DNA of 32,830 nt, taken from NCBI GenBank assembly GCA_903898475.1, contig CAIUFU010000054.1, positions 1 to 32,830 of the forward strand, written 5' to 3'. Under the pieces are notes generated by a model. The model was given only the letters and a program-made list of their open reading frames with translations. It made no database searches and had not been told where the DNA came from. A program made the translations under genes and the position numbers. Shown piece by piece: positions 90 to 15,250 of this stretch (position 1 is its first letter; each line of letters opens with the position of its first letter). Source of the stretch: an uncultured Alphaproteobacteria bacterium (GTDB taxonomy: Bacteria; Pseudomonadota; Alphaproteobacteria; Rickettsiales; UBA1997).

Positions 90-947
90 ATGCGACAATT
101 TTCAACCGCTTTACATTCTTTAAAAGTTCTTCTCATTAGGTCTCCGCGTGAAAAAGAATATGGATTAGCTAAGCTTTATATTCCCGGCATCCCCTTCAAA
201 CCTTTTTCTGAGGGTGAAAGATTGAGTTTGGGTTGGGCTTCATCAAGCGAGCTGATTTCTACTTATAATCTTTGTTCAAAATCTCAGGATTATTTATCTG
301 AGGATGATGAAGAGCGTAGCGACAAAAACCCACCGCAACGCGGCGATGTCATTGCTCATTTGGCAAAATATCATGATCCGCATGAAACTGAAGCTTATCT
401 GTCATCGGTAAAAGGCTTGGTTAGTAATGGTGACTACAATAATGATAAGCTTTTTAGAGAGGCTGAAGATCGTAGATTGCCAGCCTACGTTTTGAAGGAT
501 GGACTGCTTGATTTACGAAAGTCCGATGGCACTTTTGAGCCAGCAAAATTCTCTCGGGATATTATTTCTTTTGATAAAAGGGATCGTAGCCCTCAAGAAG
601 TGCAAGGGTTGGTGGAGTATCTAAGGAAAAATTATGAAACTATCATTGCGGAGAGAGCGCAACAATATTCGTGGCCAAAATATCTGAGTTTTCTGTCTAG
701 CTGTAAGAAAAACATTCTTAACGAAATTACCTCAAGGATTGAAGCTGATACCCACCAGAAGGCTCTAGCAATTAATCCAGCCTACAAAAAAGAGTGGGAT
801 GAGAGTTGTCAAACTTCAGAAACAAAAGTTGAAACTCCATTTGTTGAAACTCCCAATCCGATTCTGCAACAAAATGATGACAAGTTAACAGAGGCTAGAC
901 AGGCTTTTTATGATCAGAATTACGATGCGATCTCGAGATATGATTAG
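90..947 (+). CDS. hypothetical protein, hydrophilic, no recognisable family
   Basis: Uninterrupted 285-codon ORF. AGGAG at 76-80 lies 9 nt before the ATG. No signal peptide or TM segment. No motif I can assign to a family. Confidence 0.55.
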   Translation: MRQFSTALHSLKVLLIRSPREKEYGLAKLYIPGIPFKPFSEGERLSLGWASSSELISTYNLCSKSQDYLSEDDEERSDKNPPQRGDVIAHLAKYHDPHETEAYLSSVKGLVSNGDYNNDKLFREAEDRRLPAYVLKDGLLDLRKSDGTFEPAKFSRDIISFDKRDRSPQEVQGLVEYLRKNYETIIAERAQQYSWPKYLSFLSSCKKNILNEITSRIEADTHQKALAINPAYKKEWDESCQTSETKVETPFVETPNPILQQNDDKLTEARQAFYDQNYDAISRYD

Positions 948-3492: not shown

Positions 3493-6400
3493 ATGCACTC
3501 TAAGAAACACTCAGCTTTCTCTCTTCTAGAAGTGTCAGCTGTCCTGATTATTGTCGGTATTTTTATTGCCGGAGTTGTTGCGGCTAACGGCATGGTTTCA
3601 AAGTTCAGAATTACCGCGGCCCAAACTTTAAGCCGTTCATCACCAATTAACGAAGTTCCAGATGCCGCGATCTGGCTCGAAACCAGCTTGGATACTAGTT
3701 TTAACTCTAGTGAAAGTTCTGATACATCATCTCTGACAACTTGGTATGATTCTAGAGCTTCAATGAGCAAAGTTACGGTTCAGGCGGTTTCGGGAAATCC
3801 TACTTATTCTAACACTATCAATCGCATTCACGCTGTTAAGTTTAACGGGTCGGGATATTTCACCTTTGACGGCAGCTTTTTAAACAAGAGCGATTACACA
3901 ATTTTCATTTTAGAAAAAAGAGAAAGTGCCAATGCTGGCAATTATTTTTTGGGAGATAGTTCGGTTACAACCCCAAACCAAAATCTGCTTTTAGGCTACA
4001 GTGCCGATGGGCAAATCACTCATAGTCAAGGCACTAACTCTTACGCTGCAGGCATTAGTAATTACTCTAGCTCCGGTGGTGCGCCGCGAGTTTTTACCTT
4101 CACGCAAAGCGCAACAGCTGGCAAAAAAACTTATATCAATGGTGTGCTTGCGGCGGAAAGCTCTGATACAACTCAGCTTAGCGGCATTTCAACTTTAAGC
4201 ATTGGCCAAGGCTACACCGGACAAATTGGTGAAGTTGCTATATTTACAAGAGCACTCGAGCCTGAAGAGAGAATAGCCATTGAAGATTATGTCGGCAAAA
4301 AATGGTCTTCAAAAATTAATCGCGCCAACGCTGTAAGCTGTATTGACGGCACGGTTACGTTAAATGGTTGCGATAGTTCAACGCCAACTACTCCAACTCC
4401 AATTACTTGCGCGGTTAGTGTTACTGGCGTTTCCAGCACTGCTGCAGTTGCAAGTGGTAGCGGAACTTTAACTTGTGATGTCACCGGCTACAGAGGAACT
4501 AGCGCTTACACTTGTGCCAGTGGAACTCTTACTGCTGCGGCTTGCGCTTGCGCTAGCGGCTATGCTGCCTCGGGTGGAGCATGTGTTGCAACTCCAACTA
4601 CTTGCGCGGTTAGTGTTACTGGTGTTTCCAGCACTGCTGCAGTTGCAAGTGGTAGCGGAACTTTAACTTGTGACGTTACCGGCTACACTGGAACCAGCGC
4701 CTACACTTGTGCCGGCGGAACCCTTACCGCCGCGACTTGCGCTTGCGCTAGTGGATATGCTGCGTCGGGCGGAGCATGTGTTGCATCTGGTGCAAATTGC
4801 ACTGGTGGCACAATTGATAACTCAGTATCGGGCTATGTAATTCACAAATTTTTGAGTGGCGGAACTTTCACCTGCCCAGCTGCAAAAACTGTTGAGGTTC
4901 TTGTGGTCGCCGGTGGTGGTGGCGGCGGTGGCGGCGGTGGTGGCGGTGGTGGCGCAGGAGGTGGCGCGGGTGGTTTAATTTATAATTCTAGTTTTTCAGT
5001 TTCGACTTCTCCAATTACAGTAACCGTTGGTAATGGCGGTGCTGGTGGTCCCGGCAATAATTACAATTTGGCGGGCGTTGGCAGCAATGGTGGAAATTCA
5101 GTGTTTTCAAGCTTGACTGCTGTTGGTGGTGGTGGTTCGGGAGCTCGTGAAGATAGTGGAAATGCTGGGTTATCCGGTGGTTCTGGTGGCGGCGGTGGTA
5201 TTTCGGGAACTTCTAAAGCTGGTGGATCGGCAACTTCCGGACAAGGCAATGCTGGTGGTGCTAACGGACAAGGTGGAAATTATGGTGGTGGTGGCGGCGG
5301 CGGAGCTGGAGCTGCTGGTCAAAATGGCACTAGCAGCAAAGGTGGAAATGGTGGCGTGGGCTTGCAATATAGCATCAGCGGCACCTCAACTTACTACGCT
5401 GGCGGTGGCGCGGCTTCTTACTATTCTTCAGGCGGCACTTTTGGTACGGGTGGATTAGGCGGCGGCGGCTCAGTTGGAGTTGCGGGAACTGCTAATACTG
5501 GCGGCGGTGGCGGCGGAGGAACGACTACTTCAGACTCTGGTTTGGCTGGTGGTTCTGGTATTGTGATTGTGCGTTATGCCAGTGGGCCTGCAACTAGTTG
5601 CGCGGTTAGTGTGACTGGTGTAACGAGCCCAGCCACGGTTAGTATTGGCGCCAGCGGTAGCTTGTCTTGCGGTTCAGGTTATACTGGTTCGGTAAGCTAT
5701 ACTTGTCTTTCTGCGGGTGTTTTAAGTACTACGGGATCTTGCGCAGCGATTACTAGTTGTCCTGTTTCTGTAACAGGAGTGACTACGCCAACCACAGTCA
5801 GTGTTGGAGCTAGTGGCAGCTTATCTTGTGGTTCAGGTTACACTGGCTCGGTGACTTACACTTGTCCTTCTACGGGTGTTTTAAGTACCACGGGATCTTG
5901 CGCAGTGATTACTAGTTGTCCGGTTTCTGTGACGGGAGTTACTACGCCAACCACAGTCAGTGTTGGAGCTAGTGGCAGCTTATCTTGCGGTTCAGGTTAC
6001 ACTGGCTCGGTGACTTACACTTGTCCTTCGACTGGAACTCTCAGCGTTACAGGAACTTGTACTGCACCAGTTTCAACTTCTGTAGTTCGAACATCAGGCA
6101 CGTCTTACACGGTACCATCCGGAGTTACCCAAGTTAAAGTTTGGGCAATCGGCGCCGGTGGTGGTGGCGGCGGAGCCGGTGGAGCCGGTGGCGGCGGCGG
6201 AGCTGGTGGTGTTGCTTACAAAACTTGGACAGTCTCGCCAGGAAATACCATTACTTATTCAATTGGCACTGGCGGTAATGGTGGCGTTGGCTCAGGAAAA
6301 ACAGGGGCAACTGGCGGCAATACAACAGTGACCATTAGTGGTGTAACAATCACCGGTAATGGCGGCGGTGGTGGACGTGGCGATAATGCTACCGCATCGG

Positions 6401-6831
6401 TTGGTGGTTCATTTAGTGGTGGTGATGGTGGTGTTGCAGGTGGTGGCACGGTTGGAATATCTGGTGACAGAGGAGGAAGCGCTGGTGCTGCGATCGGCGG
6501 AGTGAACGGAACCGTTCCCCCTGACACTGCTTTTGGCGGAACCGGTGCTAACAGTGCTGATGTGAGTGCGCTATTTACAACGCTTGCGGCAGTTGGAGGT
6601 TATCCAACCGTAAGTGGAGGTGCGGGATCCGATAGTGGTAACATAGGTGGCGAAACCAATCACGGCTCAGCTGCTACCGGATTTGGTTGCGGTGGTGGTG
6701 GCGCTGGCTGGTGGGGTGGCAATGGTGGCGCTGGCAGATATGGCGGCGGCGGCGGTGGCGCTGCTGGTGAAGGTAGTTCTAGAACTGGTGGCGGCGGTGG
6801 TGCTGGTGCGGTTGTGCTAAAATTCTTCTAA
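3493..6831 (+). CDS. giant prepilin-signal / LamG-like / Cys-repeat / glycine-rich domain protein, paralog 1 (two-cassette form)
   Basis: Intact 1112-codon ORF. Short basic leader MHSKKHSA, then FSLLEVSAVLIIVGIFIAGVV (prepilin cleavage/methylation-type motif, Glu at +5). LamG-like block at about 3673-4305 (WLETSLD...HAVKFNG..YFTFDG...DYTIFILEK...KTYINGVL...IGEVAIFTRALEPEERIAIEDYVGKKW). Then 2 x 65-aa Cys units and glycine-rich domain 1 (about 4795-5577, ending GGSGIVIVRY). Then 3 x 53-aa Cys units and glycine-rich domain 2 (about 6070-6828). Confidence 0.85.
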   Translation: MHSKKHSAFSLLEVSAVLIIVGIFIAGVVAANGMVSKFRITAAQTLSRSSPINEVPDAAIWLETSLDTSFNSSESSDTSSLTTWYDSRASMSKVTVQAVSGNPTYSNTINRIHAVKFNGSGYFTFDGSFLNKSDYTIFILEKRESANAGNYFLGDSSVTTPNQNLLLGYSADGQITHSQGTNSYAAGISNYSSSGGAPRVFTFTQSATAGKKTYINGVLAAESSDTTQLSGISTLSIGQGYTGQIGEVAIFTRALEPEERIAIEDYVGKKWSSKINRANAVSCIDGTVTLNGCDSSTPTTPTPITCAVSVTGVSSTAAVASGSGTLTCDVTGYRGTSAYTCASGTLTAAACACASGYAASGGACVATPTTCAVSVTGVSSTAAVASGSGTLTCDVTGYTGTSAYTCAGGTLTAATCACASGYAASGGACVASGANCTGGTIDNSVSGYVIHKFLSGGTFTCPAAKTVEVLVVAGGGGGGGGGGGGGGAGGGAGGLIYNSSFSVSTSPITVTVGNGGAGGPGNNYNLAGVGSNGGNSVFSSLTAVGGGGSGAREDSGNAGLSGGSGGGGGISGTSKAGGSATSGQGNAGGANGQGGNYGGGGGGGAGAAGQNGTSSKGGNGGVGLQYSISGTSTYYAGGGAASYYSSGGTFGTGGLGGGGSVGVAGTANTGGGGGGGTTTSDSGLAGGSGIVIVRYASGPATSCAVSVTGVTSPATVSIGASGSLSCGSGYTGSVSYTCLSAGVLSTTGSCAAITSCPVSVTGVTTPTTVSVGASGSLSCGSGYTGSVTYTCPSTGVLSTTGSCAVITSCPVSVTGVTTPTTVSVGASGSLSCGSGYTGSVTYTCPSTGTLSVTGTCTAPVSTSVVRTSGTSYTVPSGVTQVKVWAIGAGGGGGGAGGAGGGGGAGGVAYKTWTVSPGNTITYSIGTGGNGGVGSGKTGATGGNTTVTISGVTITGNGGGGGRGDNATASVGGSFSGGDGGVAGGGTVGISGDRGGSAGAAIGGVNGTVPPDTAFGGTGANSADVSALFTTLAAVGGYPTVSGGAGSDSGNIGGETNHGSAATGFGCGGGGAGWWGGNGGAGRYGGGGGGAAGEGSSRTGGGGGAGAVVLKFF
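4405..4794 (+). repeat. 2 x 195-bp in-frame tandem repeat (65-aa six-Cys unit) inside paralog 1
   Basis: acttgcgcggttagtgttactgg... recurs at 4405 and 4600. The first ~75 nt differ at one position, and the remainder is about 85-90 percent identical by eye. Confidence 0.9.
4912..4953 (+). repeat. (GGY)14 trinucleotide tract encoding 14 consecutive glycines
   Basis: ggt ggt ggt ggc ggc ggt ggc ggc ggt ggt ggc ggt ggt ggc, read in frame with the 3493 start. The equivalent tract is 5 Gly in paralog 2 and 8 Gly in paralog 3. Confidence 0.95.
5593..6069 (+). repeat. 3 x 159-bp in-frame tandem repeat (53-aa four-Cys unit) inside paralog 1
   Basis: actagttg[cy] unit starts at 5593, 5752 and 5911. 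An 89-nt core (5782-5870 vs 5941-6029) differs at a single position. Confidence 0.9.
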
Positions 6832-6834
6832 ATT

Positions 6835-6869
6835 AATTGCTCACAAAATTCACCAGTTTGTGAGCAATT
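6835..6869 (+). terminator. 13-bp perfect hairpin downstream of paralog 1 (possible weak intrinsic terminator)
   Basis: aattgctcacaaa (6835-6847) pairs with tttgtgagcaatt (6857-6869) across a 9-nt loop, starting 4 nt after the stop codon. No strong T-tract follows, so terminator function is uncertain. Confidence 0.4.
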
Positions 6870-6896
6870 GTTACTTGTGCTTTGACATTGCGCTCC

Positions 6897-6910
6897 TAGA
6901 TTGCGCGCCC
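6897..6910 (+). promoter_or_regulatory. tagattgcgcgccc motif (possible -10 TAGATT plus GC-rich discriminator) upstream of the ABC-F gene
   Basis: The identical 14-mer occurs upstream of atpD at 29909-29922. Both copies are followed by a similar c/ttyttac tail. Confidence 0.3.
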
Positions 6911-6945
6911 CTTTTACCCAACATTTTTATCTTTCCAAAAGTACC

Positions 6946-8436
6946 GTGATTAGAGTCAAAGATTTATCCATTTCATTTGCTGGAAACGAAGTTTTTTCTG
7001 ATGCCAGTTTTATTATTAACGGCCGCGAGAAGGTTGGCTTGATTGGGCGCAATGGAAGCGGCAAATCAACATTTCTTAAATTAATTCTCAAAAAATTAGA
7101 GCCAGATTCGGGCGCAGTTGAAATCCCGCGCGGCTACAGAATTGGTCACTTAGAGCAACATATTCACTTCACCCACAACACCACTTTAGAAGAAATTTGT
7201 TCAGTGCTTCCCGAAGATCGCGAGCATGAAGGCTGGAAGGGCGAAAATATTTTATATGGTCTGGGCTTTACTCCTGAAGATCTCGAGAAAGATCCAAAAA
7301 ATTTCTCCGGCGGTTACCAAGTAAAATTAAACTTGGCCAAATTGCTTTTGGTTGAGCCACAAATGTTGCTTTTGGACGAGCCGACTAACTATCTCGATAT
7401 TCACTCAATTCGCTGGCTTAAAGAATTTTTACAAGAATGGGAAGGCGAGCTAATTCTAATCACGCATGATCGCGGATTCATGGATGATGTGGTTACGCAC
7501 ACTTTAGTAATTCACCGCAAAGCCTTCAAAAAAGTTCCGGGAAACACTCAAGGCGTGCGCGAAAAAATTGCGGCTGAAGAAGAAATTTACGAAAAAACCA
7601 GAGTTAACGAAGACAAACAAAGACAAAAAACTCAAGAATGGATCGACCGCTTCGGCGCCAAAGCTAGCATGGCGAGCCGCGCTCAATCGCGAGTGAAAAT
7701 GTTGGAAAAGCAAGATGTTAAAGAAAAGCTCGAGCATGTGGCAACTCTTGATTTTGAGTTTAATTACAATCCTTACGCCAGCAAAGAAAACATGGTTGAG
7801 GCTGAAAATATTGCTTTTGGTTACACGCCAGAAAATTTGCTGATTCAAAACCTTTCTTTCAAAGTTGCTGATGGCGAAAAAATCTGCATCATCGGAAAAA
7901 ACGGTAAAGGTAAATCAACTTTGCTTAAGCTGATCACCCAAGATTTGGCGGCACTCAAAGGCAATGTTAAAACTAACGGTAAAACAGAAATTGGCTATTT
8001 TGGCCAGATGAATATTGACCGTCTTGATCCAACTCGCACGGTTTATGAAGAGTTGCAAAGAACTGACGAGAAATTGCCGGTAAGTCGCGTACGTCAAGTG
8101 TGTAGCAACATGATGTTTAACAATGATTTGGCGAATAAAAAAATTTCGGTTTTGTCGGGTGGTGAAAAATCTCGCGTGATGCTTGGAAAAATTTTGCTCA
8201 AAGGCGTGAATTTGCTTTTGCTCGACGAGCCGACAAACCACTTAGATATGGAATCTTGTGATGCTTTGCTAGAAGCCATTAAAAACTTCAAAGGCGCGCT
8301 GATTGTTGTAACTCACGATGAGCATTTCTTGCGTCAAATTGCCAACAAGTTGATTATTTTTGATGACAATAAAACCTTCACTTTTGAAGATTCTTACGAG
8401 TTCTTCTTGAAAAGAGTTGGTTGGAAAGATCATTAG
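6946..8436 (+). CDS. ABC-F family ATPase (two ABC domains, no TM domain)
   Basis: Walker A twice (GRNGSGKST, GKNGKGKST), signatures (SGGYQVKLNLA, LSGGEKSRVMLG), Walker B (LLLDEPTNYLD, LLLDEPTNHLD) and a charged interdomain linker. The ORF is open from TTG 6901. I prefer GTG 6946 because it gives the usual ~34-residue lead to Walker A and leaves the shared 14-nt motif non-coding. The start is uncertain. Confidence 0.85.
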   Translation: MIRVKDLSISFAGNEVFSDASFIINGREKVGLIGRNGSGKSTFLKLILKKLEPDSGAVEIPRGYRIGHLEQHIHFTHNTTLEEICSVLPEDREHEGWKGENILYGLGFTPEDLEKDPKNFSGGYQVKLNLAKLLLVEPQMLLLDEPTNYLDIHSIRWLKEFLQEWEGELILITHDRGFMDDVVTHTLVIHRKAFKKVPGNTQGVREKIAAEEEIYEKTRVNEDKQRQKTQEWIDRFGAKASMASRAQSRVKMLEKQDVKEKLEHVATLDFEFNYNPYASKENMVEAENIAFGYTPENLLIQNLSFKVADGEKICIIGKNGKGKSTLLKLITQDLAALKGNVKTNGKTEIGYFGQMNIDRLDPTRTVYEELQRTDEKLPVSRVRQVCSNMMFNNDLANKKISVLSGGEKSRVMLGKILLKGVNLLLLDEPTNHLDMESCDALLEAIKNFKGALIVVTHDEHFLRQIANKLIIFDDNKTFTFEDSYEFFLKRVGWKDH

Positions 8437-8470
8437 GAATTATCGTTTTTCTGAATTTTATTTTTAAAAA

Positions 8471-10510
8471 ATGCGCTCAAAAAAAATCAAAAAATTTAGT
8501 GCATTTTCCCTCGTTGAAGTCTCGGTTGTAATTATCATCCTTGGCATTTTTATTGCTGGCGTTGTTGTTGCTGACGGCATGGTTTCAAAATTCAGAATTA
8601 CCGCCGCACAAAATTTAAGCCGCTCTTCTCCAGTTAACGAAGTTTCCGATGCAGCACTTTGGCTTGAAACTAGTTTAGATAGTAGTTTTAACGGCGGTGA
8701 GGCCAATAATGGTAGCCCACTTTCAACTTGGTACGATCAGAGAAATTCCACCTCAAAAGTTGCAATTAGCACAGCAGGTGCAAGTCCCACTTATTCTAAC
8801 ACAATTAATCGGGTTCACGCTGTAGAATTTGACGGCAGCGCTAATAAATATTTTACCTTCGATGGCAGCTTTTTAAACGGCACTGATTACACAATTTTTG
8901 TTCTCGAAAAAAGAAAAAGCGCCAATACCAATAATTATTTTTTAGGAACTGTGGGCTCCGGATCCAATAACAGCTTGGCTTTAGGATATAGCGCCGATTC
9001 AACGGTAATTCACGCTCAAGGTTCGAATTCTTACAATTCGAGTGTGACGAATTACTCAGGATCGGTGGGAAATTCGCGAATTTTTACCTTCATTTCTAGC
9101 GCAACCAGCAAAAAAACCTACATTAACGGAGTGCTTGCGGCGCAAAGCTCAAGCGCCTCTCAGCTCAGCGGAATTTCAACCTTAAGCATTGGTCAAAATT
9201 ACATTGGCGAGATTGGTGAAATCGCAATTTTTACTCGCGCCCTTGAGCCTGATGAAAGAATCGCTATTGAAGATTACGTCGGCAAAAAATGGACTAGCAA
9301 AATTAATCGCAACATCGTGCCTTCAGGCTCTTGCGTTGGCTACACGGTTACTGCAAGCGGTTGTGATTTAGCATCGGCAAATTGCAGTATCAGTCAGGCT
9401 GGCGTTAGTGCGACAGTTTCTGCAACTTCCAGCTCAACAACTCTTTCTTGCAATCTCGCCAATTACACTGGAACCATCAGCTACACTTGCGCTAGCGGAG
9501 TTGCTAGTGTTTTGGGATCTTGCTCTTGCGATGCGGCTCACAGCGGCGAGGGTTGCGCTTCTTGCGCTAGCGGTTACGAATCTGTTAGCGGCAATTGTCA
9601 GGCAATTTCTTGCGCGGCAAGCGGCACTGGACTTTCGGGAACAGTGAATCAAGCCAGTGGCGGCTTATCTTGCGGATCGGGATATTCAGGAGTGGTTAAT
9701 TACACTTGCTCAAATGGAACTTTCGCCATTACCAGTGGCTCTTGCAGCGTCCAGACAAATTGCACCGGAGGCACAATCAGCTCGTCTGGTGGATATACGA
9801 TTCACAAATTTACCACAGTTGGTTCTAGTCAAAAATTAAATTGTCCAAATACCAGAAATGTTGAATATTTAATTGTTGGAGGTGGTGGTGGAGCTGGTGC
9901 TTTCAACGGTGGCGGTGGTGCTGGAGGATTGCTAAGTGGCACAATTTCTGTCGCCGCTGCAACCGATTACATCGTGACTGTTGGCGCGGGTGGCTCTGGT
10001 GAAAATACCGTAAATAGCGGTGGCAGCAATGGTGGCTTTTCTTCTTTCAACGGACTCACCGCAATTGGTGGTGGCAAAGGTTGGCATAATCAAGCGGGAA
10101 GCACTGGCGGATCTGGTGGGGGAAGTGGTTATAGCAGTGTTACTCGCGCTGCAGGAACTGCCGGACAAGGAAATGCCGGCGGTGCGGGTGCTAATATTTC
10201 TAACGCCTGGGCTGGCGGTGGCGGTGGCGGTGCTGGAAGTGTCGGAGGAGACGGCACAAATGGTCGCGGTGGCGATGCCGGTGCTGGTATTTTATCAAAT
10301 ATTACTGGAACTCCAACTTACTACGCGGTTGGCGGGCCGGGAGCTAGTTACAATTCATCAGCAACGCCATTAACTTCGGGTGCCGCCGCCGCGGGCGGAT
10401 CCATAACCGGACAAGCGGGCGCGGCAAACACCGGAAATGGTGGTGGTACAGGCCTGACAACATGGAATGGTATGGCCGGTGGTTCGGGAATTGTGATAAT
10501 TCGTTACTAA
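8471..10510 (+). CDS. prepilin-signal / LamG-like / Cys-repeat / glycine-rich domain protein, paralog 2
   Basis: Intact 679-codon ORF. Leader MRSKKIKKFSA, then FSLVEVSVVIIILGIFIAGVV. The LamG-like block is about 70 percent identical by eye to paralogs 1 and 3. Cys modules lie at about 9383-9763. A glycine-rich domain ends the protein as GGSGIVIIRY-stop. Confidence 0.85.
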   Translation: MRSKKIKKFSAFSLVEVSVVIIILGIFIAGVVVADGMVSKFRITAAQNLSRSSPVNEVSDAALWLETSLDSSFNGGEANNGSPLSTWYDQRNSTSKVAISTAGASPTYSNTINRVHAVEFDGSANKYFTFDGSFLNGTDYTIFVLEKRKSANTNNYFLGTVGSGSNNSLALGYSADSTVIHAQGSNSYNSSVTNYSGSVGNSRIFTFISSATSKKTYINGVLAAQSSSASQLSGISTLSIGQNYIGEIGEIAIFTRALEPDERIAIEDYVGKKWTSKINRNIVPSGSCVGYTVTASGCDLASANCSISQAGVSATVSATSSSTTLSCNLANYTGTISYTCASGVASVLGSCSCDAAHSGEGCASCASGYESVSGNCQAISCAASGTGLSGTVNQASGGLSCGSGYSGVVNYTCSNGTFAITSGSCSVQTNCTGGTISSSGGYTIHKFTTVGSSQKLNCPNTRNVEYLIVGGGGGAGAFNGGGGAGGLLSGTISVAAATDYIVTVGAGGSGENTVNSGGSNGGFSSFNGLTAIGGGKGWHNQAGSTGGSGGGSGYSSVTRAAGTAGQGNAGGAGANISNAWAGGGGGGAGSVGGDGTNGRGGDAGAGILSNITGTPTYYAVGGPGASYNSSATPLTSGAAAAGGSITGQAGAANTGNGGGTGLTTWNGMAGGSGIVIIRY

Positions 10511-10524
10511 TTATTTTTTAAAAA

Positions 10525-11010
10525 ATGATCGAAATTCGCCTAGCAACAGAATCTGATTTTGACGAAATTTGGCGCATTTTTCACAGCGTAATTGCTGGCA
10601 AAAATACTTACGTCAATCGCCACGACACCACAAAAGACGAGGCTTACGCCAAATGGATGGACAAGAAAGTCAAAACTTTTGTCGCAGAAATTTCTGGAAA
10701 AATCGTCGGCGTTTATTTGCTAAAACCCAATCAAGTTGATCTAGGATCGCATGTCGCAAATGCCAGTTACATCGTTGACGCGGCAGCTCGCGGCGCAGGT
10801 GTCGGCAAGGCTTTAGCGTTGCACTCAATTGCCAAAGCCAAAGAAATTGGCTTTCACGCAATGCAATTTAATTTCGTCGTTTCAACCAATGAAGCAGCAG
10901 TGAAATTGTGGCAATCAGTTGGCTTTAAAATAATTGGCACAGTTCCTAAAGCCTTTAAACATGCTAGTTTAGGCTATGTTGATGCTTACATCATGTTTTT
11001 GAATTTGTGA
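10525..11010 (+). CDS. GNAT family N-acetyltransferase
   Basis: 161 aa. Acetyl-CoA-binding motif A (AARGAGVGKAL) in the usual position. Overall beta-alpha pattern of small GNATs. Starts 14 nt after paralog 2. Confidence 0.8.
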   Translation: MIEIRLATESDFDEIWRIFHSVIAGKNTYVNRHDTTKDEAYAKWMDKKVKTFVAEISGKIVGVYLLKPNQVDLGSHVANASYIVDAAARGAGVGKALALHSIAKAKEIGFHAMQFNFVVSTNEAAVKLWQSVGFKIIGTVPKAFKHASLGYVDAYIMFLNL

Positions 11011-11231
11011 AAAAATTTCTCACATTGTTCAGCTTAATTTTTTTAGCAGCGAGTTTAGTGGGCGCTCAAGATTTAGAAGAGGCGCCAAGCATTTGCGACG
11101 CCAGTGAGGCTTGCAAAAAAGCCTGCCAAGAAAAAGAGGCTGAGGGTCACGATGATTATGATTCTAAATACCAACAGCTGCTTTTGAAGTGCGCCGGAGA
11201 TGTGGCAAAAAATCTTAAGCTAATTCAATGA
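11007..11231 (+). CDS. small secreted Cys-containing protein (hypothetical)
   Basis: 74 aa. Signal peptide MKKFLTLFSLIFLAASLVGAQ. The mature part is acidic with 4 Cys (CDASEACKKAC...KC). The GTG start overlaps the GNAT stop (GTGA). Confidence 0.55.
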   Translation: MKKFLTLFSLIFLAASLVGAQDLEEAPSICDASEACKKACQEKEAEGHDDYDSKYQQLLLKCAGDVAKNLKLIQ

Positions 11232-11920
11232 AAAAACTTTTTCTTCTCACCTTTCTAATTTGTCTACAAGCCCCACAAGCTTGGTCGCAGATGACGATCT
11301 TAAATGTTCCGTCTGCCGATGTTGCGCCGAAAAAACGTGTTTTTGTGCAGCATGAGTCGCAATTTCGCACCAAAGAAAAGGGACGATTTTTAAACGCCAC
11401 TAACTACCTAACTTTTGGCGCGGGGCACAACACCGAGCTCACCGCCACCTACTACAATTTGGGAAATCTTTCCTACAACAATGACACGCTGGCGCTCGGC
11501 TTTAAAACCGCGCTACCGCTTTCAATTGAAGAAATAAAAAACTACCAACCAAAAATAATTTTCGGTTCAGCGGCAGCAATTTCGGTGCAGGGCAATGGCG
11601 TGGGGAATTGGACTTACGCGGCAGCAAATTTTACAATTCCGCAAAGTCAAACCCGCTTAACAATTGGCGGCAGCCAAGGCACCAAACAAATTTTTGACCG
11701 CAATTCAACAGCGCTAATGTTGGGTTTTGAGCAAAAAATTACCAACAAACTTAGTTACGTTGGCGACTGGTATTCGGGCAAAAATGCGCTGGGAATTTTT
11801 GCTTCGGCTTTGAGTTACAATTTTCCAAACGATCTTGTTTTATTTACCGGTTACCAAGTTGCCAATTCTACACGAATTGCACGCAATGGCTTTATTATTG
11901 AGGTGGCGAAGCTTTTTTAA
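11228..11920 (+). CDS. small outer-membrane beta-barrel protein (hypothetical)
   Basis: 230 aa. Signal peptide MKKLFLLTFLICLQAPQAWSQ, alternating hydrophobic beta-strand pattern and an aromatic C-terminus (...IIEVAKLF) typical of BAM substrates. The ATG overlaps the upstream stop (ATGA). Confidence 0.65.
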   Translation: MKKLFLLTFLICLQAPQAWSQMTILNVPSADVAPKKRVFVQHESQFRTKEKGRFLNATNYLTFGAGHNTELTATYYNLGNLSYNNDTLALGFKTALPLSIEEIKNYQPKIIFGSAAAISVQGNGVGNWTYAAANFTIPQSQTRLTIGGSQGTKQIFDRNSTALMLGFEQKITNKLSYVGDWYSGKNALGIFASALSYNFPNDLVLFTGYQVANSTRIARNGFIIEVAKLF

Positions 11921-12652
11921 ATGAAAAATTGGACGCATAAAAACTTTACGATTCATCAATTTGACGAGCTTGAAAGCACCAATTCGCACGCTTTGCAATT
12001 GGCAAATTCTCGGCAAATTTTTGAGCGTGAGGTGATTTTGGCAGACGCGCAAAAAAGCGGGCGTGGGCGCATGGAGCGTCTTTGGAGCTCGCCCGTGGGG
12101 AATCTTTATTTTTCTTTGGTGCTGTGTCCGAAAATTTCGGCAGCCGAAGTTTCGCAGATTTCTTTTGTGGCGATTGTGGCATTGCAAAGAGTTGTAAGCC
12201 GCGCGCTGCAAAATGTAGTTGAGGTGAAATGGCCCAATGACCTTTTAATTGATGGAAAGAAAGTTGCAGGGCTGTTGCTTGAAAGCAAAATTTCGGGAAA
12301 TGATTGTGAGTTTGTGATTGTGGGGATTGGCGTAAATATTGCTTCAAACCCACTTAACACAATTTTTCCGGCGGGATGTTTGAAAGATTTTGGTGTTAAT
12401 ATTTTGCCGCAAGATTTGCTGAAATTTTTTTTGGATGAGTTTGAAAAAATTTACCAAAGCTGGGGTGATTTTGGTTTTGGCGGGGTGCGAAAATTATGGT
12501 TAAAAAATGCTTACAGATTGGGAAAAGAGATCGGCGTGAAGATTGATGGAGAAGAGTTGCGGGGGGTGTTTGAAGATTTTGATCTTGAGGGGAATTTGGT
12601 GCTTAGATGTGGTGAAAAGTTGGTGAAGATTTCTACGGCCGATGTTTCTTAG
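11921..12652 (+). CDS. birA: biotin--[acetyl-CoA-carboxylase] ligase, group I (no N-terminal HTH)
   Basis: GRGRMERLWSSPVGNLYFS matches the BirA biotin-binding loop GRGRxGRxWxSPxG. KWPNDLL and GIGVN blocks are present. Starts at the nucleotide after the upstream stop. Confidence 0.88.
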   Translation: MKNWTHKNFTIHQFDELESTNSHALQLANSRQIFEREVILADAQKSGRGRMERLWSSPVGNLYFSLVLCPKISAAEVSQISFVAIVALQRVVSRALQNVVEVKWPNDLLIDGKKVAGLLLESKISGNDCEFVIVGIGVNIASNPLNTIFPAGCLKDFGVNILPQDLLKFFLDEFEKIYQSWGDFGFGGVRKLWLKNAYRLGKEIGVKIDGEELRGVFEDFDLEGNLVLRCGEKLVKISTADVS

Positions 12653-12781
12653 CGGAAATTTTTCTGCGTAAATAAAAGCGCATTTTTTATTTTTGCCTCA
12701 AAAACTAGCCGACTAACTTGACTTTCTCTCCTTCCAAGAGAAATCTTCCAAAATCTTGCTTTCAATCAATTAAAGTCCCCG

Positions 12782-15250
12782 ATGCCTGTAAAATATCGCC
12801 ATTTTCGTGGCTTCTCACTAATAGAAGTATCGGTCGTAATCATCATCATCGGGATCTTCGTTGCAGGCATATTTGTCGCCGATGGAATGATCTCTAGGTT
12901 CCGCATCACTGCCGCCAAATCTCTAACCCAATCTTCTCCAATCACTGCTCTGCCAAGTTCTGCTTTGTGGCTTGAAACCAGCCTGGATTCTAGCTTCAAT
13001 CTGAGTGAGACTCAAAATGGCAGTGACCTTTCTGCTTGGTATGACCAACGGAATGCTTCAAGCAAAATAGTAATTAGCACGGCAGGCGCCAGCCCTACTT
13101 ACTCCAACACTATTAACAGAATTCACGCTGTAGAATTTGATGGCACGGCCAACAAATACTTCACTTTTGATGGCAGCTTTTTGAACAAAACCGACTACAC
13201 CATCTTCGTGCTTGAAAAAAGAAAAGACTCTAAAAGCGACAATTATTTTTTAGGTGAAACAGGAGCTGGATTAAACAACTCGTTAGCTCTTGGGTATAGC
13301 GCCAACAATCAAATTATTCACGCTCAAGGCGCTAACTCTTATCCTTCAGGAATTAGCGCTTACTCAGATTCTAAAGATAAGCCCCGAGTATTTAGCTTCA
13401 CTCACAGTGGAATTGCCGGTAATAAAACTTACATTAATGGCGTTCTAGCCGCTGAGAATACTGACCCTGATGCTCTAGCTCACCTAACCGGAATTAGTAC
13501 TCTGGCAATTGGCAAAGGTTACGTTGGAGAAATTGGCGAACTCGCCATCTTTACCGAAGCATTAGAGGTGGCAGATAGAACCTCGGTCGAAGATTACTTG
13601 GGTAAAAAATGGACCTCGTCAATCAACAGAAATAAAACTCCCAACTGTGTTGGTGGACTCGTCACTGTTGGCGGCTGCGACAATTCTGCACCCATCATCT
13701 GCAGTGCTTCAGGAACAGGATATAATCAAACAGGTCTTACTTATACTTCGGGGGCAGCATTCTCCTGCAATACCTCAGGATATAGCGGCACTATTAGCTA
13801 TAAATGTTTAGCTTCGGGACCCGCTTCAAACATCTCGGGAAGCTGCGTAGCTACAACTTGCACCGCTCCATCGGGCACTGGATATAGCGCTCAATCGGGG
13901 CTAGCTTACTCAGCGGGAAGCGGAACTTTCGGCTGTGATGTAGGATTTACCGGCAGCAAAACTTACACCTGCACTGCGTCTGGTGTTGCCACCGGAATTA
14001 GTGGAACTTGTACGGCGATTACTTGTAGTGCTCCATCTGGAACTGGCTATAATGCTCAATCTGGACTCGCTTATTCAACGGGAAGCGGAACTTTCGGCTG
14101 TGATGTAGGATTTACCGGCAGCAAAACTTACACCTGCACCGCATCTGGTGTTGCCACCGGAATTAGTGGAACTTGTACGGCAATTACTTGCACTGCTCCA
14201 TCTGGAACTGGATATCTTGCGCAGACTGGCCTTGCCTACGCGGCCGGTGGAAGTGGGACTTTTGGTTGCGACACAGCCAATGGCTACACTGGAACTAAAA
14301 ACTATACCTGCACCACAGCGGGGGTAGCGACTGGAATTACAGGAACTTGCACTGTGGCTGGACCTTGCACAGTTAGCGGCGCGACAAATGGCACTCACAC
14401 ACTAAACAGCTCAGCATTTTCAGGATCAACGATTCACGCTTTTGTTGCTACCAGCGCAGCTGGGGGTGCTTCGGCTACGTTTACTTTTACCTGCCCAACT
14501 GCGCGCAATGTTCAGGTTTTGGTGGTTGGTGGTGGCGGCGGTGGAGGTGGATGTATTAGCGGTGGTGGTGGTGCGGGAGGGCTTATCTACAGCGCCTCTT
14601 ACGCGGTAAGTGCTGGTAACACTTCGGTCACTGTTGGTGTTGGTGGTATTGGCGGCAATGGTTGGAGCACGTTGCAACAACATGGTAAAAAGGGTGCAAA
14701 CTCGGTATTTGGATCTTTAACAGCAATCGGAGGTGGAGGTGGCGTTGATCACAGGTATTCCGTAGATCCAATGCCTAAAGATGGTGGCTCAGGCGGAGGT
14801 GATGCGCTACATAATCAAGATGGTGTCGTAAAAAGTGGGTGGGGCGTTGGAAGTTCTGGACAAGGCAATAATGGAGGCGCCTGCTCATCTAATTGCTACG
14901 ATCGTGCTGGAGGTGTTGGAGGCAGCGGATCTGCCGGTGGCAACTCGAGTGGATCTGTATCGGGAGTTGGCGGTAGTGGCTTGTATTACGGAACTATTTT
15001 TTCAAACAGCTACGGCCATTCTGGCTGGTTTGCTAGTGGCGGCAGTGGTGGTGTAAGAAGCGGCACGGGATCTGTTGGAACTGTGGCACAAGGCGGCGGC
15101 GGTATTGGCTCTGTAAATACAACTGGCGCAGTATCTGGCATGGCTAATACTGGTGGCGGCGGTGGTGGAGCTGGTTTTGATGCTGGTAATTCTGCGGTCG
15201 TTGGTGGTAATGGTGGCTCTGGCATCGTAATTGTGCGCTACGTTAACTAG
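12782..15250 (+). CDS. prepilin-signal / LamG-like / Cys-repeat / glycine-rich domain protein, paralog 3
   Basis: Intact 822-codon ORF. Leader MPVKYRHFRG, then FSLIEVSVVIIIIGIFVAG (canonical Gly at -1, Glu at +5). LamG-like block, four Cys units (13700-14350), and a glycine-rich domain ending GGSGIVIVRYVN-stop. Confidence 0.85.
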   Translation: MPVKYRHFRGFSLIEVSVVIIIIGIFVAGIFVADGMISRFRITAAKSLTQSSPITALPSSALWLETSLDSSFNLSETQNGSDLSAWYDQRNASSKIVISTAGASPTYSNTINRIHAVEFDGTANKYFTFDGSFLNKTDYTIFVLEKRKDSKSDNYFLGETGAGLNNSLALGYSANNQIIHAQGANSYPSGISAYSDSKDKPRVFSFTHSGIAGNKTYINGVLAAENTDPDALAHLTGISTLAIGKGYVGEIGELAIFTEALEVADRTSVEDYLGKKWTSSINRNKTPNCVGGLVTVGGCDNSAPIICSASGTGYNQTGLTYTSGAAFSCNTSGYSGTISYKCLASGPASNISGSCVATTCTAPSGTGYSAQSGLAYSAGSGTFGCDVGFTGSKTYTCTASGVATGISGTCTAITCSAPSGTGYNAQSGLAYSTGSGTFGCDVGFTGSKTYTCTASGVATGISGTCTAITCTAPSGTGYLAQTGLAYAAGGSGTFGCDTANGYTGTKNYTCTTAGVATGITGTCTVAGPCTVSGATNGTHTLNSSAFSGSTIHAFVATSAAGGASATFTFTCPTARNVQVLVVGGGGGGGGCISGGGGAGGLIYSASYAVSAGNTSVTVGVGGIGGNGWSTLQQHGKKGANSVFGSLTAIGGGGGVDHRYSVDPMPKDGGSGGGDALHNQDGVVKSGWGVGSSGQGNNGGACSSNCYDRAGGVGGSGSAGGNSSGSVSGVGGSGLYYGTIFSNSYGHSGWFASGGSGGVRSGTGSVGTVAQGGGGIGSVNTTGAVSGMANTGGGGGGAGFDAGNSAVVGGNGGSGIVIVRYVN
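13700..14350 (+). repeat. four tandem in-frame Cys-repeat units (first Cys codons at 13700, 13859, 14024 and 14189) inside paralog 3
   Basis: C-x(21-23)-C-x(12-13)-C-x(10-11)-C units. Units 2 and 3 (13856-14020 vs 14021-14185) share a ~106-nt 3' core with 3 mismatches. Their 5' 59 nt differ at 11 of 20 codons, 8 of them synonymous. Confidence 0.9.

Follow-up and report, generated by a model that had tools for sequence, protein, structure and literature searches.

Do large proteins that start like pilins and end like phage tail-fibre tips belong to a bacterial filament? This question is raised by three genes on contig CAIUFU010000054.1 (assembly GCA_903898475.1) of an uncultured alphaproteobacterium assigned to the Rickettsiales (GTDB lineage UBA1997), of which positions 1 to 32,830 of the forward strand were analyzed; this stretch of 32,830 nucleotides (nt) is called the window here. 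The genes, named paralogs A, B and C, encode proteins with a prepilin-type N-terminus, a LamG/ConA-like jellyroll, cysteine-spaced (Cys) modules and glycine-rich domains. In our reading, to which we give a probability of roughly 0.55, they are modular pilin-like proteins of a type-4 filament, whether as minor or as tip pilins, in a type IV pilus or a pseudopilus like that of a type II secretion system (T2SS), and would act as filament-borne adhesins.

All three genes are intact open reading frames (ORFs) whose products are alignable end to end and share a common architecture (Table 1). A first-pass annotation, made from the sequence without database searches, had described one architecture for the three ORFs: a prepilin-type class III signal, a LamG jellyroll starting about 50 residues in without a recognizable globular pilin domain, two to five Cys-spaced modules and a glycine-rich domain ending in GSGIVI[VI]RY. 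The ORFs and all of these domains were recovered at the same positions by profile searches, repeat detection and structure prediction. The N-terminal third, estimated by eye as 65–75% identical, proved to be 69% (A) and 66% (C) identical to B over the first 285 amino acids (aa); over the whole length the values are 60 and 54%, respectively. Paralog A goes beyond the earlier description, since its Gly_rich_2 domain 1 is followed by three further Cys modules and a second, divergent Gly_rich_2 domain.

The N-termini of A, B and C fit the rule for class III signals, i.e., a short hydrophilic or basic leader ending in Gly or Ala, a hydrophobic stretch of about 20–25 residues and, in many cases, a Glu at position +5. 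The leaders are 8–11 aa long and rich in Lys, Arg and His, with the junctions MHSKKHSA/FSLLEVS in A, KKFSA/FSLVEVS in B and RHFRG/FSLIEVS in C. Position −1 is thus occupied by Ala (A, B) or Gly (C), Phe is found at +1 and Glu at +5, and about 23 hydrophobic residues follow in each protein. The NCBIfam model TIGR02532 (cutoff 16.3) is matched above its cutoff by A (17.0) and C (23.9) and just below it by B (15.3). The Pfam model N_methyl (PF07963, cutoff 21.2) is matched above its cutoff by C (26.5) and below it by A (17.6) and B (19.5–20.7), and gave a match at E ≤ 0.01 in 26 of 44 homologues (best 2e-8). Among 56 unique N-termini of the family the residue at −1 is Ala in 51, Gly in four and Ser in one, which is compatible with the rule that leaders of class III signals end in Gly or Ala (PMC10191384). 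Phe at +1 and Glu at +5 occur in all N-termini listed, and F1, E5 and G14 are strictly conserved in the family. The AlphaFold model of residues 1–285 of B, which was built on 44 sequences (mean predicted local distance difference test score (pLDDT) 93, predicted template modelling score (pTM) 0.87), shows a 38-residue helix at residues 14–51, corresponding to the long pilin helix α1, which spans about 50 residues in type IV pilins.

In the same model, a β-sandwich (residues 61–254) comes directly after α1 and is followed by a closing helix. The model contains no separate pilin β-sheet domain, and the fold search with it yielded LamG/ConA folds and no pilin heads. A Foldseek search with the jellyroll of B gave 205 PDB matches at E ≤ 1e-3 (top 3.7e-9), among them botulinum NTNH/Hc-N and trans-sialidase lectin domains at 4e-9 as well as the modular pilin PilC of Streptococcus sanguinis (7oa7/7oa8) at about 1e-7 (7e-8). 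At the sequence level, Laminin_G_3 (PF13385, cutoff 27.6) was matched above its cutoff by the isolated segments of A (34.1) and B (29.2) and below it by that of C (24.4); the Pfam scan of the full-length proteins missed the domain in all three. The model matched 28 of the 44 homologues (best 8.5e-11), and a sequence search of the N-terminal part against the PDB gave nothing significant. It can be predicted with confidence that in A, B and C the LamG domain is placed directly on α1 and that the pilin head is absent.

The glycine-rich domain, for which the closing motif had been noted at first, is identified as Gly_rich_2 (PF21722, cutoff 24.3 bits) at 73.4–92.7 bits in the three proteins. Matches to phage protein families were found as well: phrog_2295 was hit by domain 1 of A (E = 2.8e-51) and by C (E = 1.3e-34), and phrog_863, which belongs to the tail category, by domain 2 of A (E = 1.8e-9). 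Within residues 478–695 of A, 53 of the 81 residues that are invariant across A, B and C are glycines, with variable segments lying in between. In the AlphaFold model of residues 286–679 of B (mean pLDDT 88.7), model residues 220–390 are mostly without DSSP helix or strand, and the block pLDDT is mostly 87–98, with a dip to 45–62 at 341–360. Coil predicted at such high pLDDT is as would be expected for segments of the polyglycine-II type.

The best PDB match of this C-terminal model is the tail fibre protein gp24 of cyanophage Pam3 (7ypx, E = 7.8e-4), followed by the TNF-like/glycine-rich domains of the receptors LTK and ALK (E = 4e-3) and the tail tip of mycobacteriophage Bxb1; these values are modest (TM-scores 0.29–0.44), in part since the query model includes the Cys modules. 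Among the predicted viral structures of BFVD, 196 matches at E ≤ 1e-3 were obtained (best 4e-19, 30–44% identity), which derive from cyanophages, a Pelagibacter phage, prasinoviruses and a haloarchaeal phage. The TNF-like/glycine-rich domains of the Pam3 fibre serve host receptor recognition, and its tip has a glycine stem that is conserved and a distal end that varies, a structure which its authors liken to gp38 of phage S16 and to ALK of Caenorhabditis elegans (PMC9608196). A sequence search of the C-terminal part against the PDB gave nothing significant, and no paper on PF21722 or Gly_rich_2 was found in a literature search. Gly_rich_2 alone is far more widespread than the family, with more than 2594 matches including candidate-phyla bacteria, an archaeon and phages.

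Between LamG and Gly_rich_2 and, in A, also between the two Gly_rich_2 domains lie the Cys modules, of which A has two of 65 aa and three of 53 aa, B has two and C has four of about 55 aa. Several of them are visible as tandem repeats in the DNA, at 4394–4785 (195 nt × 2.0, 90% identity) and 5629–6029 (159 nt × 2.5, about 90%) in A and at 13856–14215 (165 nt × 2.2, 90%) in C, and those of B and C were detected by a hidden Markov model (HMM) built for the purpose. The modules are units of 46–55 aa with four invariant cysteines and the core C-x(2-4)-G[YF]-x-G-x3-Y-x-C; some of those in A and B are followed by an EGF_2-like stretch C-x-C-x2-G-Y-x6-C. Pfam Sushi (PF00084, cutoff 20.7) reached 23.0 for modules 3–5 of A only, summed over three stretches, and did not match the modules of B and C; cEGF stayed below its cutoff on the modules of A (19.7 bits). 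The Trp which Sushi domains keep between the third and fourth Cys is lacking, and a profile of the modules gave nothing significant against PDB sequences, with the Sushi domains of DAF at E of about 0.5–1. The modules may tentatively be regarded as Sushi/EGF-like.

Table 1. Positions of paralogs A, B and C and of their domains in the window.
Feature	Position	Strand	Description and evidence
Paralog A	3493..6831	+	1112 aa; signal/α1 - LamG - 2 Cys modules - Gly_rich_2 - 3 Cys modules - second Gly_rich_2
A class III signal + α1	3493..3636	+	leader MHSKKHSA, F1...E5; TIGR02532 17.0; helix placed by analogy with the B model
A LamG/ConA-like jellyroll	3673..4323	+	PF13385 34.1 bits
A Cx9C hairpin + two 65-aa modules	4339..4797	+	4-Cys unit, then EGF_2-like CxCxxGYx6C
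A Gly_rich_2 domain 1, TNF-like + glycine-rich	4798..5577	+	PF21722 92.7 bits, best stretch aa 457-695; ends GSGIVIVRY
A three 53-aa four-Cys modules, Sushi-like	5596..6069	+	tandem repeat; Pfam Sushi
A Gly_rich_2 domain 2, divergent	6070..6828	+	PF21722 35.4 bits, E=1.5e-8; ends AVVLKFF
Paralog B	8471..10510	+	679 aa; signal/α1 - LamG - 2 Cys modules - Gly_rich_2
B class III signal + α1	8471..8623	+	helix predicted at residues 14-51, AlphaFold mean pLDDT 93
B LamG/ConA-like jellyroll	8660..9310	+	PF13385 28.5-29.2 bits; Foldseek
B Cx9C hairpin, 4-Cys module, EGF-like stretch, 4-Cys module	9329..9760	+	sequence; β-rich small domains in the model
B Gly_rich_2 domain	9761..10507	+	PF21722 81.8 bits; ends GSGIVIIRY
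Paralog C	12782..15250	+	822 aa; signal/α1 - LamG - 4 Cys modules - Gly_rich_2
C class III signal + α1	12782..12931	+	Gly at -1; PF07963 26.5, TIGR02532 23.9
C LamG/ConA-like jellyroll	12968..13630	+	PF13385 24.4 bits, E=3.5e-5
C Cx9C hairpin + four ~55-aa four-Cys modules	13643..14365	+	tandem repeat; purpose-built module HMM
C Gly_rich_2 domain	14366..15241	+	PF21722 73.4 bits, best stretch aa 565-820; ends GSGIVIVRY(VN)

The three genes belong to a large family. When the first 285 aa were used as query in a word-indexed search, 60 relatives of 28–75% identity (mostly 45–60%) were returned, which come from metagenome-assembled genomes (MAGs) of Rickettsiales or Pseudomonadota and are named 'prepilin-type N-terminal cleavage/methylation domain-containing' or 'LamG-like jellyroll' in the databases. 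An exhaustive search of representatives clustered at 50% identity retrieved 1843 proteins at E ≤ 1e-10, 311 of them at E ≤ 1e-30; the best representatives are mostly 600–1300 aa long, and their alignment starts at the pilin N-terminus. In a motif-based scan that covered a single genome for each GTDB species, 62 loci from lakes, groundwater and the Black Sea were identified. All but one of them are located in MAGs labelled Rickettsiales or Alphaproteobacteria or in obvious mislabels ('Rickettsia typhi', 'Rhizobium sp.'), and the remaining one is in a MAG labelled Gammaproteobacteria. Copy numbers per MAG, which are lower bounds, amount to at least 17 loci in ErkenSummer_bin-0736 and to 4–6 in several others.

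According to the purpose-built HMMs, the canonical architecture of the family is N-terminus, LamG, zero to five Cys modules and Gly_rich. Variants comprise proteins with LamG only, with LamG and a SUEL lectin, and with two Gly domains, as well as many split copies. In the SUEL variant (P0008, encoded at L003 10001–11407, P0033 and P0034) a galactose/rhamnose-binding lectin domain of the SUEL type (PF02140) after LamG replaces the Cys/Gly part. The split copies are distributed over two or three consecutive ORFs (loci L015, L016, L033, L043, L048, L049, L058, L065 and L067) and may be pseudogenes or may result from frameshift or assembly errors in repeat-rich genes. Instead of dispersed singletons, some genomes have arrays of family genes: at L013 9977–18269 (CAYVKI010000024.1), four family genes lie in a row, three on the forward and one on the reverse strand. 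The same LamG subtype was also found 4–14 times in tandem in proteins of 2200–3500 aa to which the pilin N-terminus does not align (P0322, P0326, P0379, P0389, P0394, P0396 and P0397).

A further combination bears on where the C-terminal part is displayed. The cassette of EGF-like, four-Cys and Gly_rich_2 modules ending in GIVIVRYVN was found fused to N-termini of VirB2/TrbC-type pilins of a type IV secretion system (T4SS) in P0069, P0104 and P0120 (L074 10001–11809), and joined directly to a pilin signal in P0064. Each of these four genes stands alone among housekeeping genes. The presence of the cassette both on VirB2-type pilins and behind a pilin signal argues for a filament-displayed module, and it speaks against a mere membrane anchor.

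The components of such a filament were searched for in the window and in related genomes. The first-pass annotation had seen no pilus or secretion gene in the window, and none was found there; no pilus gene was present either in the 10 kb upstream (gene table only) or in the 10 kb past the other end (on a contig of another sample). The search for assembly genes it had proposed was performed by tblastn with HofB, HofC and PpdD as well as GspD, GspE, GspF, GspG, GspL, GspM and GspO of Escherichia coli K-12 on about 0.94 Mb of family-bearing loci from roughly 15 MAGs. It revealed an extension ATPase and a secretin in relatives, but no prepilin peptidase (GspO/PilD) or platform protein (GspF/HofC) in these loci. 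The yield was one ATPase (L059), one secretin (L057) and one VirB11, the gene of which lies at L036 7000–7900 in a family-bearing MAG.

In the near-conspecific MAG L059, the gene of the GspE/PilB-family ATPase (PF00437, 320 bits) and a family gene are 9 kb apart. A full-length ATPase of 461 aa (P0181), which is 97% identical to the ATPase of L059, matches the NCBIfam models GspE with 485 and PilB with 480 bits. Its gene is located alone between gltX and apaG/tsaB, and the gene of an 85%-identical ATPase likewise stands alone; such stand-alone genes of the clade were found at L073 10001–11386 and L076 9–1262 (flanks gltX/apaG and xerC-like/atpB), and their surroundings gave no hint of further machinery components. 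The secretin of the family-bearing MAG L057 (PF00263, 128 bits) has its best NCBIfam match in an MshL-like model. Any filament machinery appears to be scattered and not organized in an operon. With ATPase and secretin known from the genomes of relatives, type-4-filament machinery is plausible for this clade.

Several points weigh against filament incorporation. Paralog B stays slightly under both N-terminal HMM cutoffs, and Ala at −1 is a minority state among characterized pilins. The canonical globular pilin head is absent from the model of B, and the packing of α1 and LamG into a filament is a supposition. Neither a prepilin peptidase nor a PilC/GspF platform nor a small major pilin is encoded in the window, in the flanking 10 kb on each side or in the 0.94 Mb of loci, and both ATPase and secretin come from relatives, not from the window's own genome. 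In addition, disulfide-rich proteins of 70–115 kDa would need to pass through the secretin.

These points could be accommodated if the pilin-like N-terminus served only as a membrane anchor or export signal, and the proteins remained unpolymerized on the periplasmic side of the inner membrane or in a bindosome-like surface assembly, where they would bind a polysaccharide or another substrate. Archaeal sugar-binding proteins with class III signals are a precedent for this, and to BasE the ATPase gave only a weak match. The missing pilin head and the Ala at −1 in 51 of 56 N-termini would suit such an anchor, but the strict conservation of F1, E5 and G14 and an α1 of 38 residues exceed what a plain anchor needs, and the helix of A evolves under a ratio of nonsynonymous to synonymous substitution rates (dN/dS) of 0.03. 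At least 17 copies in one MAG are many for tip pilins and recall the expanded pilin-like families of other phyla, whereas a receptor-binding tip of the tail-fibre type and a lectin fold make little sense inside the periplasm. Peptidase, platform and major pilin genes were not seen near family members, but an extension ATPase and a secretin are encoded in relatives. On this evidence an anchor without a filament seems unlikely to us, although it is the alternative that deserves the most attention.

If A, B and C are filament-borne, the following sequence of events can be envisaged. The basic leader and the hydrophobic N-terminal part of α1 would direct insertion into the inner membrane via Sec, and a prepilin peptidase would cut after the Ala or Gly at −1. 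The α1 helix with its Glu5 would then allow uptake into a filament driven by an ATPase of the GspE/PilB type and extruded through the secretin, and the bulk of the proteins would probably place them at the filament tip. There, the LamG jellyroll sitting on α1 instead of a pilin head may bind glycans, while the presumably disulfide-bonded Sushi/EGF-like modules would form a stalk of variable length. The target would be recognized by the distal TNF-like/glycine-rich domain, in which variable loops are combined with a conserved polyglycine scaffold in a fold that phages employ at the tips of their tail fibres. Many paralogs, duplication and deletion of modules and exchange of segments could in this way provide a repertoire of binding specificities.

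The evolution of the family was analyzed with two close relatives of the window, CE-Oct18-128 (L009) and ErkenSummer_bin-0736 (L011, L012), the flanking DNA of which is 91–95% identical. Orthologues of A, B and C occupy the same slots in both. Relative to the window, named housekeeping neighbours show 94–99% aa identity, whereas A and B show 87–90% each; the L011 orthologue of A is 87–88% identical and its neighbours 97–99%. For C, the N-terminal half is 82% identical and the C-terminal half is unalignable. Between the window and L011, dN/dS is 0.03–0.13 for housekeeping genes and, within A, 0.03 for the α1 helix, 0.05 for LamG and 0.21–0.27 for the Cys (stalk) modules. In Gly_rich_2 domain 1 of A, dS is 1.24 against about 0.25 in the flanks, and because of this difference the domain points to a segment replacement rather than to vertical divergence. 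Positive selection is not supported, as all dN/dS values are below 1 and the pattern is one of relaxed constraint and segment replacement. Recent gene conversion among A, B and C was not seen either: their N-terminal DNA is 65–81% identical, and only tandem modules within a gene reach 80–91% DNA identity.

Changes in length are on the scale of modules. The L009 orthologue of A lacks window positions 4625–5752 including the first Gly-rich domain (L009 7290–7330), and about 120 aa are missing from the Gly domain of the L009 orthologue of B (window ~10071–10429; L009 11089–11553). A C allele that is 100% identical elsewhere (P0441) is without exactly one 55-aa module (aa 379–433 of C), and C alleles of at least 90% identity range from 715 to 840 aa. 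The deletions in the L009 orthologues and in P0441 are in-frame and module-sized and occur between near-identical alleles; they could result from recombination between repeats or from assembly collapse. The family evolves faster than its neighbours, with gain and loss of modules and possibly their exchange. The earlier description of an expanding and diversifying family amid core genes is borne out by the synteny, the elevated divergence and the module indels in near-identical genomes.

The same data raise the question of whether the family is largely decaying or non-functional, i.e., made up of repeat-rich, low-complexity ORFs that persist under relaxed constraint in reduced genomes. Although dN/dS is above that of the neighbours, all values are well below 1, and α1 and LamG of A are under constraint like that of housekeeping genes. 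Many MAG copies are split into two or three ORFs and in-frame deletions affect parts of domains in L009, but the splits may be MAG assembly errors, the genes of the window are intact at 679–1112 aa, and the architecture is kept across about 20 family-bearing MAGs and the 311 clusters (50% identity, E ≤ 1e-30). Decay is an improbable explanation for the family.

The genes of the window lie in the order mreD-mrdA / A / ABC-F / B / GNAT ... birA / C / lysC, with lysC on the reverse strand, and are interleaved with core genes as had been described at first. The window is carried by a metagenomic contig of 86.6 kb, and paralog B is present on other assemblies as well. A fourth family member of 665 aa with a Gly_rich_2 domain is located about 5 kb upstream of window position 1 and adjoins an rve-type integrase gene (gene table only). 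Together with it, at least four paralogs are found within about 25 kb.

The GC content of A, B and C is higher than that of the flanks, which had been suspected to be an effect of amino-acid composition only. The GC content of the third codon position (GC3) is 0.33–0.41 in A, B and C compared to 0.32–0.44 in housekeeping and neighbouring genes. The excess is confined to codon positions 1 and 2, with a GC content of 0.69–0.74 at position 2, because of the content of Gly, Ala, Thr and Ser, in agreement with that suspicion. Since GC3 is native, there is no sign of a foreign origin, which is rejected as the cause of the high GC.

This also bears on the possibility that the genes are remnants of prophage tail fibres or were recently acquired from phage DNA. 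The Gly-rich domain is common to many phage proteins at 30–44% identity and matches phrog_2295 and, in the tail category, phrog_863, but in A, B and C it is carried behind a pilin signal and LamG and not on baseplate-attachment domains. An integrase gene adjoins the fourth paralog, but no other phage genes flank A, B and C, whose neighbours are mrdA, ABC-F, GNAT, birA and lysC. As GC3 and codon usage are native and the same slots are occupied in related genomes, a prophage remnant is rejected on gene context, synteny and codon usage, and a phage origin in either form is strongly disfavoured.

Further observations concern the vicinity of the family genes. At window positions 90–947 (forward strand), a hydrophilic protein of 285 aa is encoded at the place expected for mreC, with mreD and mrdA directly downstream. 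No membrane segment is predicted in this protein, Pfam and NCBIfam gave no match, and its identity in sister genomes is 79 and 56%, with adjoining genes at 97–99%. At 11228–11920 (forward strand), a β-rich protein of 230 aa with a signal peptide and a C-terminal Phe resembles a small outer-membrane β-barrel; it has no family match and is 98–99% conserved in sister genomes. Scans for promoters and terminators gave counts not above those of shuffled sequences and were uninformative. Large autotransporter genes were found at L003 5342–8611 (1089 aa) near a family member and at L073 1512–4343 (943 aa) near the ATPase gene, and form another class of candidate adhesins in these MAGs.

A preprint reports that UBA1997, a freshwater family of the Rickettsiales, was imaged as an epibiont attached to cryptophytes, and that early-branching families of the order have type IV pili (bioRxiv 10.1101/2023.01.31.526412). 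A more far-reaching and rather speculative proposal is that each genome holds an arsenal of interchangeable tip adhesins, up to at least 17, in which a receptor-binding tip of the phage tail-fibre (ALK-GRD-like) type is carried on a stalk of lectin and Sushi/EGF modules. The cassette would be mounted on two unrelated kinds of filament subunit, the α1 of type IV pilins and the VirB2-type T4SS pilin, and with this arsenal extracellular or epibiotic Rickettsiales would attach to eukaryotic, e.g., algal, cells. If true, the arsenal would offer a molecular handle on the pre-intracellular stage of host association in the Rickettsiales. A heavy expansion of the family is seen in MAGs from aquatic, for the most part freshwater, habitats that carry the label Rickettsiales, a group in which the shift from a free-living or epibiotic to an intracellular life is debated, and this large, fast-evolving set of candidate host-attachment proteins provides concrete targets for further study. 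If the proteins are displayed on a pilus, a fold that binds receptors at the tips of phage tail fibres and ligands in the animal kinases ALK and LTK would be put to use by bacteria as a cellular adhesin, attached to pilus subunits and varied through the shuffling of modules. In addition, the family offers a natural case of a lectin replacing the pilin head, which is of interest for the question of what part of a pilin filament incorporation requires. If the proteins are plainly membrane-anchored, the finding would amount to an ordinary refinement of the annotation.

Modular pilins as such are known. They are defined by the N-terminal motif IPR012902 together with at least one extra domain that is not pilus-specific, and more than 1200 InterPro proteins with 264 architectures have been listed, in which the combination of pilin and PF13385 is among the 15 most frequent (PMC8179133). 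With a class III signal, PF13385 and PF21722, A, B and C fall under this definition. The first-pass annotation had not recognized these proteins as described, and that claim of novelty was overstated, as modular pilins, the pair of pilin and PF13385, and PF21722 were already described and the pipelines of JGI and NCBI already give the family proteins generic names; no paper was found for the exact architecture, for its expansion or for the cassette on VirB2-type pilins. What appears not to have been described is the exact architecture, the absence of the pilin head, a tip of the tail-fibre/ALK type on a pilin, the expansion of paralogs in aquatic Rickettsiales-like MAGs and the parallel fusion to VirB2-type pilins.

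The type IV pili of S. sanguinis, named at first as a precedent for a lectin module, indeed include with PilC a characterized lectin-bearing modular pilin (PMC8179133, PMC9934059). Like the family, PilC with its ConA-like lectin and PilB with its vWA domain combine a class III signal and α1 with grafted non-pilin modules, and the fold of PilC (7oa7/7oa8) matches the LamG of the family; the proposed role as a tip-displayed adhesin is the same. However, PilB is described with a small canonical pilin module, to which a short loop connects the added one, and for PilC, too, a pilin moiety has been reported, whereas in the family LamG is predicted directly on α1 and the model contains no such moiety. 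Unlike the modular pilins of S. sanguinis, the family adds two to five Cys-rich modules and one or two Gly_rich_2 domains and reaches 680–1100 aa. S. sanguinis is monoderm, whereas the hosts of the family have outer-membrane genes (Omp85, and a secretin in a relative). It has one such gene in its pil locus, in contrast to the many dispersed paralogs per genome of the family.

The distal domain has its closest counterparts in phage fibres. Gp24 of Pam3 (7ypx/7yfw) and, according to its authors, gp38 of the Salmonella phage S16 combine a TNF-like β-sandwich with stacked glycine-rich motifs and variable distal loops as the family does, and hundreds of phage 'glycine-rich domain-containing proteins' match it at 30–44% identity. 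These fibres are trimeric, are attached to the baseplate by an N-terminal helical bundle and need a chaperone, whereas in the family the domain is C-terminal in a cellular pilin-like protein. The TG/GRD domain of ALK and LTK (7nx1, 7mzy, 7lrz and 7lir) belongs to the same fold class (PDB ranks 2–22, E = 4e-3 to 0.1, probability up to 1.0) and adjoins EGF-like Cys-rich modules in the receptors as in the family. No match was found at the sequence level, where Pfam gave only PF21722 for the family domains and no ALK-type family. The two occur in entirely different biological settings, and their relationship may be a very distant or a convergent one.

Finally, CofB of enterotoxigenic E. coli and TcpB of Vibrio cholerae (type IVb pili) as well as GspK of the T2SS are oversized pilin-like proteins with extra β-rich domains which are thought to be located at filament tips. 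Neither a sequence nor a fold match to them was obtained; they still have a pilin domain, and their genes belong to pilus operons. CofB forms a trimer (PMC8179133), and this is a precedent for a possibly trimeric fibre-tip domain that caps a filament.

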